A stretch of 64,000 bases of DNA, taken from NCBI RefSeq assembly GCF_963558545.1, contig NZ_CAUWHO010000008.1, positions 503 to 64,502 of the forward strand. Reading direction: 5' to 3'. This stretch comes from an uncultured Tyzzerella sp. Lineage in GTDB: Bacteria > Bacillota > Clostridia > Lachnospirales > CAG-274. Below the pieces are notes generated by a model. That model saw only the letters and a list, made by a program, of their open reading frames with translations, had not been told where the DNA came from and did not search any database. Below, piece after piece: positions 10,293 through 59,151 of the stretch. Each line of letters starts with the position of its first letter. The first letter of the stretch is position 1. Position numbers and translations under genes: made by a program.

Positions 10293-10742
10293 CTAAAATA
10301 ATTTATCACTATCTAAAAGTATAGTAATAGGACCATCGTTTATAAGCTCTACCTGCATATCTGCTCTAAATATACCTGTTTCTACTTTATCATAATTATT
10401 TTTAACATAATCTATAAAATCATTAAATATTTTTTCTGCATCATCTGGCTTAGCACCACCTACAAAACTAGGACGGCGTCCTTTTCTAGCATCTGCATAA
10501 ACTGTAAAATTAGGTACTATTAATAATCCTAAATTTAAATCTTTTATAGATAAATTAAGCTTATCCTCATCATCTTCAAATATTCTAATATTTATAATTT
10601 TATCACACATATACTTAAATGTTTCTACATTATCTGTGTCATTAACAGCAACAAGAGCAACTATACCTTTATCTATTTTACCTACTGTTTGTTTATTTAT
10701 ATCTACTTTTGCCTTTGTTACTCTTTGTAAAACAACTCGCAT
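10293..10742 (-). CDS. dtd: D-aminoacyl-tRNA deacylase
   Basis: 149 aa. MRVVLQRV...SFVGGAKPDDAEKIF...GPITILLDS. The relA-dtd order is conserved. Confidence 0.9.
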   Translation of the reverse strand: MRVVLQRVTKAKVDINKQTVGKIDKGIVALVAVNDTDNVETFKYMCDKIINIRIFEDDEDKLNLSIKDLNLGLLIVPNFTVYADARKGRRPSFVGGAKPDDAEKIFNDFIDYVKNNYDKVETGIFRADMQVELINDGPITILLDSDKLF

Positions 10743-24199: not shown

Positions 24200-24970
24200 T
24201 TATTTAGATATAAATAATTGTGTCCAATGGCTTGATATATGTCCAACACCAATATGAGTAAAGGACTTACTAAGTATATTTCTTTTATGTCCTTCAGAGT
24301 TCATCCAAGCATTTACAACATCTTGTGCTGTTTTTTGTCCTTTAGCAATATTTTCTCCAGCAGTTTTATATGTAATGTTAAATTGTTTTAACATATCAAA
24401 AGGCGAACCATATGTAGGAGATGTATGAGAAAAATATCCTTTATTTTTCATATCCTGAGATTTTAGTCTTGCCACGTTAGATAGTTCTGTGTCTATTTTA
24501 AGTGGTGATAAGCCAGCCTTTTTTCTTTCTGCATTAACAAGATTAACTACTTCTTGTTCTATGTTAGATACAGAGTTATTTACATTATTATTATTTTCTG
24601 TTGGTTTATTAGGTTTCTGTTGTATATTATTATTGCTATTTGTGTTATTATTATTTGTGTTATTGTTATTATTTATGTTGTTATCTTTATTGTTATTTAT
24701 ATTATTGTTTACACAATTGTTATTTGTACAATTATTACTTGTATTATTATCTACATTGCTATTTATATTGTTATTTGTGCAATTATTATTTGTATTATTA
24801 ATACTATTATTTACATTATTATTTTGTTCGTTATAGCTAAAATTCTTAATTGGTTTTCCGTTAATAGTTAAAAATTTTGAAATATCGTTATTCAGAGTGT
24901 TAGTACCTCCAAATACACTTGCTGTTGAAAATAAAGTTAAAGCAAAAGTTGTTAATAAAAATCTTTTCAT
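24200..24970 (-). CDS. Secreted CAP/SCP (YkwD-like) domain protein with Asn-rich linker
   Basis: Signal peptide, about 100 aa of N/T/C-rich low complexity, then the CAP domain (VNAERKKAGLSPL...GYFSHTSPTYG...GENIA...WMNSEGHKRNIL...HIGVG). Confidence 0.85.
   Translation of the reverse strand: MKRFLLTTFALTLFSTASVFGGTNTLNNDISKFLTINGKPIKNFSYNEQNNNVNNSINNTNNNCTNNNINSNVDNNTSNNCTNNNCVNNNINNNKDNNINNNNNTNNNNTNSNNNIQQKPNKPTENNNNVNNSVSNIEQEVVNLVNAERKKAGLSPLKIDTELSNVARLKSQDMKNKGYFSHTSPTYGSPFDMLKQFNITYKTAGENIAKGQKTAQDVVNAWMNSEGHKRNILSKSFTHIGVGHISSHWTQLFISK
24560..24840. repeat. Degenerate AAT/AAC-rich low-complexity coding repeat
   Basis: Runs of attattatt/gttattgtt units encode the poly-Asn linker. They also create the two spurious plus-strand ORFs in the track. 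Confidence 0.8.
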
Positions 24971-27800: not shown

Positions 27801-30800
27801 TTAGTTTTTAGCAGTAGTTGTTTCTGTTGTTGTATCAGAAGCAGTTGTGCTTTCAGTAGTTGTTTCTGTTGTTGTATCAGAAGCAGTTGTACTTTCAGTA
27901 GTTGTTTCTGTCATTTTAGCATTTCTACCATGATCTTTGTTGTAGATAGCAGTTCTAGTATCTGCATCCCAATCAACAGTTACACCTAAAGCTTGACCTA
28001 AAGCTCTGAAAGGAACAAACATTCTACCGTCTTTTATTTCAGCTTTAACACCGAACTCCATAGGTATTTTAGTACCATCTACTGTCATAATGTTGCTACC
28101 AGCTTGGAATTGAATAATTTTTTGGCCAGTACCTGCACCGTAGTAGATTGTAGTAGTTTTAGTGTTTGCATCAAATGCAATTTTGCTAGATTCATCTGCA
28201 TTTGTAGCATTAGCTGTATCTACACCTAAAGCTACAGAAACAAATCTTAAAGGAACCATTGTGCTGTTGCTTGATGCTTGGATATAAGGAGCTACATCCA
28301 TATCAATTGCTTGGTCACCAAGAAGGATAGTTTTTTCACCAACACTTACTTTAACTACTTGGTCAAAAGTACCTGGTTCAGTGATAACATCTAAATATCC
28401 TTTAAAGTCATAAGTTCTTACGTTATCTTGGTTAACTAAATTTTCGTTTTTAGAAGTTATATCAAATGATTTATCATCTTTAACTTCTGAGTTAAAGTTA
28501 TTGATAACAGCTGCACCACCTAATTTTAAGTCATAAGCACCAAATGGTACAGAACGTGTAGTACCTACTTTAACATCTTTGATTGTTATTGTAGATGGGT
28601 TTTTATAAGAAGCTTTGTTAATTTTAAATTCAATTACACCTTTTTTAGCACCAAATTCTTTTTCTTTAACTTCTAATTCGCCACCGCTTATTTCAAATTT
28701 AGCATTAGAGAAACCTAATTCTTGAGTACCATAAGGAGCTGCAAGTTCTAAAGTAGCAATTCTATCTTCTAAGAACATACCTGGTCTAGCTTCTGTAATA
28801 ACGATATCTGCAGTGTTGTAATCTTGGTAACCTATGTTAGCTTTTGTAGTAGTTGTTTTAATTTCAAATGGAACAACTGCTTTAGCAACAACTGTTTCTA
28901 CAACATTGCTTTGTCCACCACCTGTTACACCAAGTTTAATATCACCTTTGAAACCTGGGTCTACAGATAAGTCAAGTTTTAATACAAAGTTAGCTAAAAT
29001 GTTTGTGTTTGCATCGCTTTGTTTAACTTGGTAAGAATCTCTTTTAAGTCTTAAAACTTTACCATTTTCAACGATTTCAAAATCACTAGATTCTGGTTTT
29101 TCAGTAAAGTTGTTTTCTTTGCTAATTTCCGCACCTACGATTTTAACGCCTTCTGGAACAACAAAATCTAAAGCTCTAGATTCTACTAAAGTATTAGGGA
29201 TAGATTCTGAGAATTTAACTTCTACAGTAGTGTTGTCTTTTTCAGACATATTTGTTTCATCTTTTTTGTAGTGTCTACCAGAGATGATTTCCATAGGATC
29301 TTTTAAAGTTTCAAGTTTAAATCCTAACTCTGCTCTTTTAGCAACAACTTTGTTTTGGCTAGTGATACCATCACCAGATACAGAAAGTTCTACATCACCA
29401 AAGTTTTTGCTATTATTCGCTTCTACAAATAAACCGTCAATTCTAATACCTGTTGGTAAAGCACGATTTTCACCTAATCCACTTACTTTAACTTTAAGAA
29501 CAGAATCGTTACCGCTAAATCCATAACCAGTAGATTTAATATCTGCAGTTAATTTTTCACCTGTTTTGTCATTAAAGAATTCAACAGAATCACTTGCATT
29601 AGCACCTGTTTTAAATCTAAATCCACCATTAACTCTTAAAGTTAAAGTAGCTTCATCGTGTTTAGAAGATGTTGTACCAATTGTATTTCTAACGTTTTCT
29701 TTAATAACGATAGGACCTAATTTACCATAATCTTCAAAAGATTTAATGTTGTTGCTGCTATATACTAACTGAGTGTCACCTTCTTGTACAGAAGAAGTAA
29801 GAGTATATTCTCCACCTACAACTTTATCATTATAATCTGAAGTAATTTTAGCTTTAACAGGGGCATTACCATCAGCTATTACTGCACCTAAAGGTAAAGC
29901 AACATAAGGATTTTCTACTTTAATCTTGTCGTTTGATTCAACTGCATCATTTGTAACATCAACTTTTTTAATTTCTTTAGTTCCACTGTTTTTCAAGTTT
30001 AACCAAGTATAATCACTGTCTTGTAATTCAGTACCAGAATTTTGTTTAAACTTAATATCAATGTTACTTTCTTTTACAATTTTAGATTTTTCCATAGTTA
30101 TGCCTTTATCAGCATCACTAAGATTTAAATTAGGAACTGTAATTGTAGCAGTTGTTGGGTTATTAATTTCTATCTCATAAGGAATATGAGCTAATTCTGC
30201 TACATATTTAGTTTCTTTTTCTATTATAGCTTTTTTAAGATTAGCTATAGCTGGAGCAATTTTTTCGTGTGCCATAAAAGTAGCTTTATCTTCAATTGTT
30301 CCACCACCAAGTTTAAAGTCTTCTTCTTTAAGACTAGCTATAGCATCTCTAAGCCCTTCATAGCCTGGTGCTGTATCAATTTCTTTATCATTACCTATTG
30401 TAACACTTGCATTGTTAACATCAGTTTTGCCTATATTTGTATAAACAGTTTTTAAATCTGATGCTCCTTTCATAGCTGTAGTATAATCTACTGCTTTAAG
30501 ACTGTTACTGTTTTTATATTCATATCTTTCTTTGTGATTTTCATCAAAAGTACCGTTTTCAAGTTCTACTTTAAAAGTAACTTTATCACCAATATTGTTA
30601 GTACCGTCATTGTTAAGAGCTACTTTAACAACGCTTTTTCTACTTTTTAACTCATCAACAGTTTTGTAAGAAGTGTATTTGCTTGCTTCTGCATCGATAG
30701 TTTCGTTTGCTTTAGCAAAAGTAGTGTTTAATACACCATCAGCTTTTAATTGAGCTGCACTTGCAGTCATAGGCATTGCACTTGTAACCATCATAGCTGA

Positions 30801-33988: not shown

Positions 33989-34001
33989 TTTTTATACAAA
34001 A

Positions 34002-34279
34002 AGAGCCAAGTAACATACTTGGCTCTCAGACTGTAAAAAAAAATAATATTAAAATAAATTTTTTCATTTTTATATCCTATTTATAGGATATAAAAATTTT
34101 AATCACAAGACAAGGCTTTGCCTTGGATTGTGTAAAAGCCAGATTTCTAGGTGCTTTAGCCCTTGTACGAAGAAATCGGCTTTTTTCTTACAGTATCTCA
34201 AAAAAATAAACTTGTTATTTTTTTGAAGAGGTTGTAGACAAAGTCTACAACCTCAAAGCCAAGTACAATACTTGGCTCT
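34002..34279. repeat. 278-bp hairpin-dense element, copy A (inverted relative to copy B), including duplicated flanking terminator hairpins
   Basis: It is the reverse complement of 58781-59058 end to end. The core 34027-34256 differs from core B at 18 positions by hand alignment. Flanking hairpins at 34002-34026 and 34257-34279 are near-identical direct repeats. Confidence 0.9.
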
Positions 34280-34918
34280 TTAATCTTCTATAAAGTCATT
34301 AGAATTAAATTTGTATGCTAATGTCATTAAGCTATCTGTCAAATGTACATTTTCTACTATAACTCCGTCTTTATTTGTCAGCTCTGTATTTGAAAAATTC
34401 CATATCCCTTTTATACCATAAGATACTACATTTTTATATAAATCATAAGCATTAGTACCAGGTACAGCCAAAACAGCTATATCTACAATGTTATCCTTTG
34501 TAAATTGCTCTAGCTCTATTATGTCCTTTACTTCTAAATCTCTTATTTTTGTACCTATAACATCAGAGTTTACATCAAATATACCTATAAAATTAAATCC
34601 TCTTTTTTCAAATTCAACATAGTTTAATAAAGCCTGACCTATCTTACCTGCACCTAATATAACTAAATTGTAGGTTTTATTTAATCCTAGTATTTCTTTT
34701 ATTTCTTCATATAGAAGCTCTACATTGTATCCATACCCTTGTTGTCCAAAACACCCAAAATTATTTAAATCTTGCCTTATTTGTGATGCTGTAACATTCA
34801 TCTTTTGACTTAAATCTTTAGAAGATATCCTTGTTATACCATCATCTAATAAGTTTCCTAAAAATCTGTAATATCTAGGTAAACGTTTAATCACAGCTAA
34901 AGATACTTTTTTGTCCAT
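34280..34918 (-). CDS. rex: Redox-sensing transcriptional repressor Rex
   Basis: AVIKRLPRYYRFL, SSKDLSQKMNVTASQIRQDLNNFG and the Rossmann motif ILGAGKIGQAL. Start set at ATG 34916-34918 after AAGGAG. Confidence 0.92.
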   Translation of the reverse strand: MDKKVSLAVIKRLPRYYRFLGNLLDDGITRISSKDLSQKMNVTASQIRQDLNNFGCFGQQGYGYNVELLYEEIKEILGLNKTYNLVILGAGKIGQALLNYVEFEKRGFNFIGIFDVNSDVIGTKIRDLEVKDIIELEQFTKDNIVDIAVLAVPGTNAYDLYKNVVSYGIKGIWNFSNTELTNKDGVIVENVHLTDSLMTLAYKFNSNDFIED

Positions 34919-58758: not shown

Positions 58759-58780
58759 TACTTATAAATATGTAATATAA

Positions 58781-59058
58781 AAAGCTAAGTATAAAACTTA
58801 GCTTTGAGTTTGTAGACAAAGTCTACAAACTCTTCAAAAAAATAACAAGTTTATTTTTTTGAGATACTATAAGAAAAAGCCTATTTCTTCGTACAAGGGC
58901 TAAAGCCCCTAGAAATGTGGCTTTTACACAATCCAAGGCAAAGCCTCGTCTTGTGATTAAAATTTTTATACCCTATAAATAGGATATAAAAATGAAAAAA
59001 ATTTACTTTAATATTATTTTGTTTAAAGTCTAAAAGCTAAGTATAAAACTTAGCTTTT
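58781..59058. repeat. 278-bp hairpin-dense element, copy B, bracketed by a perfect 26-bp direct repeat of the terminator hairpin
   Basis: The direct repeat aaaagctaagtataaaacttagcttt occurs at 58780-58805 and 59032-59057. Core 58806-59031 is the reverse complement of 34027-34256. Confidence 0.9.
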
Positions 59059-59151
59059 TATATTATTAAAATTATAGTCTTTTTTATTAATTTTTGTACA
59101 AATAAAGTATAGATACCTACTTTAAATAATTTTTATCCAAAAGATTAATTA

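Follow-up and report, generated by a model that had tools for sequence, protein, structure and literature searches.

A small non-coding element that probably inserts into, and duplicates, a resident terminator palindrome in an uncultured Tyzzerella

The 64-kb stretch of DNA analyzed here (the window, 27.7% G+C) contains two copies of a non-coding core of ~229 bp, each bracketed by a duplicated hairpin. We classify the element as a non-autonomous transposable element, unusual in its long duplication, which coincides with a palindrome, and in its targeting of terminators. We consider it probable that this ~229-bp element inserts site-specifically into a terminator palindrome through staggered cuts ~24 bp apart, made by an enzyme supplied in trans; this leading reading draws on two insertion events only. 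If it is correct, a small RNA-bearing element uses a specific terminator palindrome as a safe place to land and rebuilds the terminator on both of its sides. Such a natural "self-insulating" insertion strategy would offer a route for the spread of small RNA genes, and for convergent genes to gain long overlapping 3' ends.

The two cores are inverted relative to each other and match at 213 of 230 alignment columns (92.6% identity). Their ends, AGACT...CTCAA, are the same at both loci to the nucleotide. A repeat search of the 64-kb window paired positions 34000-34282 with 58778-59060 in inverted orientation (87-88%), and revealed no third copy of the unit. Small, devoid of genes, and present in several copies with the same ends, the core has the properties of a MITE-type element. 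No convincing terminal inverted repeats were found at its ends, since AGACTTTAAAC on the left and TTGAGTTTGTAGAC on the right (reverse-complemented) show only an offset 7/11 resemblance. Elsewhere in the window, perfect and near-perfect 42-nt tandem repeats (27812-27895) are present in a 1008-codon gene whose orthologues have a Cu_amine_oxidN1 domain, and short degenerate repeats (24625-24844) occur inside an ORF at 24200-24970.

Core A lies between a convergent SseB-domain gene and rex, and core B between convergent genes for an ABC-F ATPase and an HD-domain protein, in agreement with the gene assignments of the first-pass annotation. Among named organisms, [Clostridium] colinum has the proteins most similar to those encoded by the flanking genes (amino-acid identity of 86% for HD, 83% for Rex, and 96% for ABC-F), and one relative of ABC-F bears the name "uncultured Tyzzerella sp." The bracketing of each core by a duplicated hairpin, likewise noted in that annotation, was confirmed by direct reading and in independent assemblies (contigs L001, L003, L088, and L090 from Logan SRR22523177, and L089 from ENA ERZ27257178), in which all four flanks are read through from flank to hairpin to core. 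The arrangement is thus not an assembly artefact. Coordinates of the features discussed below are collected in Table 1.

Table 1. Positions of the two cores, their bracketing hairpins, internal features of the core, and core homologues in C. colinum. Positions are those of the window unless a contig is named.
Feature	Position	Strand	Description	Basis
Core copy A	34028..34256	+	229 nt, 5'-AGACT...CTCAA-3'	Alignment; C. colinum homologues
Core copy B	58804..59031	-	228 nt, inverted relative to A	Absent from strain ENA ERZ27257178
Locus A left hairpin copy (AGCCAAGTAACATACTTGGCTCTC)	34004..34027	+	Original 5' A-run kept; side of the SseB-like gene	One orthologous hairpin in relatives
Locus A right hairpin copy (AGCCAAGTACAATACTTGGCTCTT)	34257..34280	+	Original 3' T-rich context kept; abuts the rex stop codon at 34280-34282	
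Locus B hairpin, ABC-F side (right copy in element orientation)	58780..58803	-		Single in L100-L105 and in the empty allele L002
Locus B hairpin, HD side (left copy in element orientation)	59032..59055	-		
Internal perfect palindrome (TTTTTATATCCTATTTATAGGATATAAAAA)	34067..34096	+	Overlaps promoter-like hexamers of the opposite strand	
Structured RNA-like region	34095..34228	+	P1, long P2, A/T-only hairpin at 34200-34224	RNAalifold; covariance model
Right-terminal core hairpin (GAGGTTGTAGAC-aaa-GTCTACAACCTC)	34228..34254	+		
C. colinum core homologues	L084 12738-12872; L095 7863-7990; L095 17943-18081			blastn and covariance model

At locus B, a perfect direct repeat of 26 nt, aaaagctaagtataaaacttagcttt, occupies positions 58780-58805 and 59032-59057. 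We estimate the chance of finding a perfect 26-nt direct repeat with a spacing of ~250 nt in 64 kb at about 1e-8. The corresponding repeat at locus A, agccaagta(aca/caa)tacttggctct (34004-34026 and 34257-34279), is 23 nt long, and its two copies differ only in the loop. A single parse accounts for both loci and yields a 24-bp duplication (range 23-26), with 21 of 24 positions matching at A (AGCCAAGTAACATACTTGGCTCTC vs. AGCCAAGTACAATACTTGGCTCTT) and all 24 at B (AGCTAAGTTTTATACTTAGCTTTT, present twice). Microhomology extends the repeat at B to 26 nt, as the end of the core and the target happen to share two more A's.

In both hairpins, a stem-loop that includes G+C is located between convergent genes, with an A-run on one side and a T-run on the other, as is typical of intrinsic terminators, and terminator-like scoring of the two gave three and two sites, compared with ~0.1 expected in shuffled sequences. 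By these features, they are predicted to be intrinsic (rho-independent) terminators; the unoccupied sites described below show them to be resident at, and specific to, their loci, and not ends of the element. All four stems are perfect and locus-specific, with GCCAAG/CTTGGC at A and GCTAAG/CTTAGC at B. The two targets agree in their outer half-sites (AAAGCYAAG), and differ at the stem top and in the loop. The motif GCYAAGT...ACTTRGC was found at these two loci only in the window, and hairpins of this type are likewise confined to the two loci in ~370 kb of DNA from the clade. None were present in 1.4 Mb of control DNA from other Lachnospiraceae, which is non-syntenic, ~80% identical, and was retrieved with the ABC-F protein. 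A dispersed, REP-like family of hairpins was considered as well and rejected, because the motif is confined to the two loci.

Unoccupied versions of both loci were available for comparison. Strain ENA ERZ27257178 encodes HD and SseB-like proteins identical to those of the window, while its DNA differs by SNPs. In this conspecific strain, locus A is occupied (L089), and locus B is core-free and contains exactly one hairpin of the B type (L002, which reads ...ATAAAAAGCTAAGTATAAAACTTAGCTTTTTATATT...). Thus, occupied and empty alleles of locus B coexist in public samples. In the closest relative sampled at locus B (six samples, L100-L105; ABC-F 98% identical), the genes are convergent and syntenic, there is no core, and the 41-nt spacer contains one hairpin, AAAAAGCTAAGC-TTAA-AGCTTAGCTTTTT (also given as ATAAAAAGCTAAGC-TTAA-AGCTTAGCTTTTTAT). 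At locus A, the closest relative was represented by four samples (L091-L094), with a Rex that is 88% identical. Between its syntenic, convergent rex and sseB-like genes, a 44-nt spacer again contains no core and one hairpin, AAAAGCCAAGT-ATAA (or TTAT)-ACTTGGCTTTT. The relatives sampled at the two loci are probably the same species. Two tandem hairpins with no core between them were not found at any of the unoccupied sites examined (L002, L091-L094, and L100-L105).

The difference between the GCCAAG stem at A and the GCTAAG stem at B already exists at the respective loci of the relatives. Single, locus-specific hairpins in core-free relatives imply that the hairpins are resident, and that the second copy comes with the core; the duplicated sequence is present once at unoccupied sites, as expected of a transposon target. 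The proposal of target duplication, made in the first-pass annotation from the window alone, is thus borne out by empty sites with one hairpin and no core at B (L002, L100-L105) and at A (L091-L094). Two findings that the annotation regarded as incompatible with this proposal did not materialize: no core-free site has two tandem hairpins, and the same hairpin does not accompany every core, since the hairpins of the window are as locus-specific as those of relatives, and three core homologues in C. colinum carry none. The target consensus suggested at the same time, agcYaagta...tacttRgct, agrees with the unoccupied hairpins of the relatives.

The window hairpins also carry states of their own. 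At locus A, both window copies share a GGCTCT 3' arm and a five-base top that set them apart from the relative; at locus B, both read AAGT-ATAAA-ACTT, compared with AAGC-TTAA-AGCTT in the relative. Since both copies at each locus share states unlike those of the relative, the duplications postdate the species split. Around orthologues of the HD gene, several relatives are not syntenic with the window, and the syntenic, unoccupied versions of locus B in relatives were identified through ABC-F. In one relative (L086:2250-2400), the region downstream of the HD gene contains an RNase P RNA signature, GAGGAAAGTCCG, and synteny with the window ends there.

The same arrangement could arise if the mobile unit were hairpin-core-hairpin, with the hairpins as its ends. 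The unit would then be ancestral at both loci, and the single hairpins would be footprints left by core deletion in the relatives. In its favor, perfect direct repeats of 26 bp at a distance of 252 bp lend themselves well to deletion, the A and B hairpins are nearly identical despite the unrelated loci, hairpins of this type were seen only at places that hold, or may once have held, the element, and the 7% divergence of the cores argues against a very recent insertion at either locus. However, this scenario requires that the two hairpins of a copy underwent compensatory changes in concert, with four parallel substitutions between A and B, and it is at odds with the states that both window copies share and the single hairpin of the relative does not. 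Further, core homologues in C. colinum have no such hairpins, and the core itself was not found in ~250 kb of DNA from relatives. The junctions at locus A speak on the same point. The left copy reads AAAAAG|AGCC and has the original outer stem base. In the right copy, which reads CTCAA|AGCC, this base is missing on the 5' side and the stem is shorter. Such an asymmetry, with a boundary at G|AGCC, is predicted by a duplication bounded just inside the stem, and is not predicted by hairpins owned by the element. We consider the hairpin-core-hairpin unit quite improbable. The version raised in the first-pass annotation, in which hairpins owned by the element were homogenized by gene conversion, is disfavoured. 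We favor target specificity as the source of the similarity between the A and B hairpins, though hairpins so nearly alike could also be relics of the element family, or of an older link between hairpin and element, and not independent terminators.

The perfect duplication at B and the polymorphism of this site are compatible with a recent insertion. At 7% core divergence, A was not the donor of B, so a recent insertion at B needs a third copy that was not seen. By our estimate, an insertion as old as the split between A and B would have accumulated about two differences in 24-26 nt, and a perfect repeat of that age is not improbable. The empty allele of locus B could instead have been produced by deletion between the perfect repeats.

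Under the leading reading, that of staggered insertion into a terminator palindrome, a trans-acting enzyme would recognize the palindrome through the half-site AAAGCYAAG(T), present as an inverted repeat (AAAGCYAAG...CTTRGCTTT). Recognition would be by a symmetric enzyme complex; a target consensus in the form of a palindrome is the kind that a transposase complex of this symmetry would select. The cuts in the two strands would lie ~24 bp from each other, slightly inward from the outer stem ends; once the element is joined, gap repair would leave a complete resident hairpin on each side. Of the two runs that flanked the hairpin, the left copy would then retain the A-run alone and the right copy the T-run alone. 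By these flanks, each copy is predicted to terminate only the transcription that leaves the element on its own side, and the element's own transcripts would end at the flanking copies. The convergent neighbors are probably transcribed through the element up to the distal copy, which would give them long overlapping 3' ends. No gene for a transposase, integrase, recombinase, Cas1, or other Cas protein was found in the 64-kb window or in the retrieved loci of relatives, and the window contains no related autonomous element with the same ends.

A different route to two hairpins is conservative site-specific recombination, in which a circle carrying the core and one hairpin (an attP-like site, or the donor site of an IS110-type RNA-guided recombinase) recombines with the resident hairpin. 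It has analogues in att-core duplication and in ISPpu9, whose palindrome is highly similar to that of its target, and whose small-RNA module moves alone as a circle (PMC12288879); here, too, a small RNA-bearing module is flanked by palindromic sites in direct repeat. Such a crossover predicts hybrid stems with mismatches, whereas all four stems are perfect and locus-specific, and the two sites at B are identical over 26 nt. Moreover, IS110-family insertion duplicates just a 2-nt core (PMC12288879), and no recombinase was found in the window. We judge this route decidedly unlikely.

Very unlikely, in our estimate, is an origin with no enzyme at all, by which a replication fork stalled at the hairpin would switch template to a donor and return upstream through microhomology, copying the hairpin again. 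Template switching is known to take place at hairpins. The right junction shows microhomology (core ...CTCAAAG vs. targets AAAAAG and AAAGAG), and the loop of the relative's hairpin is inverted between strains, ATAA vs. TTAT. Against such an origin, the core ends at the same nucleotides at two loci, its left boundary is conserved in C. colinum, and the targets share a specific sequence and are not just any hairpins. As to the loop inversion itself, it was observed in the relative's single rex/sseB hairpin (10642-10659; L091 vs. L092-L094), and a loop flip of this kind is typical of intrastrand template switching at hairpins.

Homologues of the core were sought with blastn and with a covariance model built from the core alignment (model R1 scores 153.6 bits on the conserved region). 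Three diverged homologues (75-78% identity, 99-116 bits) were found in 60 kb of the C. colinum chromosome, a number that suggests a fairly abundant family in this organism. Neither method detected a homologue in ~250 kb from two relatives closer to the window organism. The C. colinum homologues retain the left boundary, AGAC(C/T); all three are without the hairpins that bracket the window copies, and there are no convincing flanking duplications around them. An exact 20-mer of the core had no match in JGI metagenomes or in GTDB species genomes, among which the species of the window is not represented, and the core had none in phage and plasmid collections. A degenerate two-block pattern that covers four of the five known members matched three metagenome sequences and one viral sequence, all of which were rejected by the covariance model.

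Comparison of the five sequences points to RNA-like cargo. At the position of the perfect palindrome of the window copies, C. colinum copies have a shorter hairpin with compensatory changes (TTTTTATAC/GTATAAAAA and TTTTTATGT/ACATAAAAA), of which the window palindrome is a longer version. According to RNAalifold, the conserved part of the core comprises this short hairpin, the block TAATCACAA, the P1 hairpin, a long P2 stem, and an A/T-only hairpin. Covariation is modest, with double changes in 5 of 29 pairs; the observed score was reached in 5 of 500 shuffles, and slid controls scored much lower. G.U pairs favor the plus strand of the element. Most likely, the element carries a small structured RNA, ~125 nt long, which on this evidence would be transcribed from left to right. 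By eye, no segment of the core RNA that might serve as a guide complementary to the target co-varies with the differences between the A and B targets. The right-terminal hairpin of the core shows a compensatory change from G-C to T-A in copy B, and resembles the Rex terminators of C. colinum and of a related species.

On the opposite strand of the core, there is a 13-codon ORF (34030-34075, minus strand, and 58993-59034, plus strand; MKKFILILFFFTV and MKKIYFNIILFKV) with an AGGA ribosome-binding site and promoter-like hexamers, TTGTGA-17-TATAAA. Its frame is kept between A and B by two compensating indels. We considered that it might encode a type I toxin and rejected this, as the ORF is not conserved in C. 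colinum copies.

The core gave a single Rfam match, a full-length one to RF02998 (IS605-orfB-II) on both copies, with 34.8 and 31.3 bits (E of 4e-4 and 2e-3). The match raises the prospect of a gene-less derivative of IS200/IS605 (a PATE) that encodes a TnpB omega-RNA, with the hairpins as ends bound by TnpA, and the core is hairpin-rich and non-coding, as PATEs are. Yet both scores fall well short of the gathering score (88), C. colinum homologues do not give the match, and neither tnpA nor tnpB is present nearby. Insertion of IS200/IS605 elements produces no target duplication, and their excision would leave no hairpin; resident, duplicated hairpins and empty sites that keep one hairpin contradict this origin. 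We consider it extremely unlikely, and reject a TnpB omega-RNA identity for the cargo on account of the weak, sub-threshold score of the sole match and its absence from the homologues.

Several further arrangements were observed in other genomes. In a related species whose Rex is 85% identical (L096:10643-11340, also L097-L099), the spacer between rex and sseB is 753 nt long and contains a different hairpin, AAGGGTGTAGA-aaaaa-TCTACACCCTT, three times. The three copies bracket two tandem modules, the second of which is truncated. The module contains a 25-codon hydrophobic ORF, MKMIKILFFIIIIALLVIINTVTVY, and two convergent promoters, both near-perfect; its ribosome-binding site is sequestered. 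By its sequence, the module looks like a type I toxin-antitoxin system. This may be another instance, besides the core, of a resident terminator duplicated around a module. Overall, homology between the core and this module is not significant; there is weak similarity over the left 30 nt (p about 0.003-0.016). In C. colinum, downstream of rex (L095:10640-10750), the rex terminator, GAGGGTGCAGA...TCTACACCCT, is similar to the right-terminal hairpin of the core, in its flanks as well. The next ~40 nt resemble the left arm of the core (87% over 39 nt), and a 13-nt direct repeat, AAGTTATTTTTTT, flanks the stretch. The element may have had an old copy here, at the same gene, that was later deleted. 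Just upstream of the ABC-F gene in an unrelated Lachnospiraceae MAG (L004:9734-9913), a promoter-like box with a hairpin (GATATAATAGCCACATAAACGGAGTTTATGTGGGGCGGC...) is present twice at a distance of 157 nt, and looks like a duplicated leader.

A more general reading would attribute the duplications to a repeat-duplicating integrase, Cas1/casposase-like or other, which treats a specific terminator palindrome in the way that a CRISPR repeat is treated and serves several unrelated small modules in the clade, among them the core and the toxin-antitoxin-like module of L096-L099. We regard this as unlikely. The similarity to CRISPR Cas1-Cas2 and casposon integration lies in an insert without inverted repeats and in a palindromic unit of 20-30 bp that is duplicated on both sides, and is formal only. 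CRISPR adaptation inserts 30-40 bp, and casposons have inverted repeats and duplications of ~14-15 bp; here, the insert is ~229 bp long, with no array, no leader, and no cas1 in the 64-kb window. The comparison with Cas1-Cas2 and casposases that was drawn in the first-pass annotation is, in our assessment, a formal analogy, the more so as duplications of 27-28 bp are already produced by the IS1202 subgroup.

This subgroup of DDE transposase elements, which occurs in Firmicutes, also makes very long target duplications, of 27-28 bp, and a sister subgroup within the IS1202 family inserts beside palindromic Xer sites (bioRxiv 10.1101/2022.12.17.520857). The differences are that IS1202-subgroup ends are inverted repeats starting with TGT or Ta/gT (bioRxiv 10.1101/2022.12.17.520857), whereas the core begins with AGACT and, on the reverse complement, TTGAG, with no convincing inverted repeats, and that the duplication here is 24 bp long (range 23-26) and coincides with the palindrome. 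Bacterial MITEs and small repeats such as Correia, RUP, BOX, SPRITE, and bcr1 are small, intergenic, and structured, and some of them yield small RNAs or resemble terminators (PMC10969869). The core is likewise small, non-coding, intergenic, and highly structured. Unlike the core, these families show clear inverted repeats; their duplications span 2-9 bp or are lacking, and none of them is described as duplicating a whole resident terminator.

The nearest functional analogue that we found is ssr9 of ISPpu9, an IS110-family element of Pseudomonas putida. It is a selfish module that consists only of a small RNA, is mobilized by the IS enzyme in trans, and inserts into REP palindromes (PMC12288879), so that in both cases a small-RNA module enters extragenic palindromes. 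In ISPpu9, recombination is conservative and takes place at an AG dinucleotide, there is no long duplication, and the element itself carries a palindrome similar to the target (PMC12288879), whereas here the duplication is 24 bp long and both hairpin copies are derived from the target. The combination of a ~24-bp duplication, a palindromic target, and the lack of inverted repeats fits none of the transposase families compared, and the enzyme responsible could be an unusual long-stagger DDE transposase, or a repeat-duplicating integrase put to a new use.
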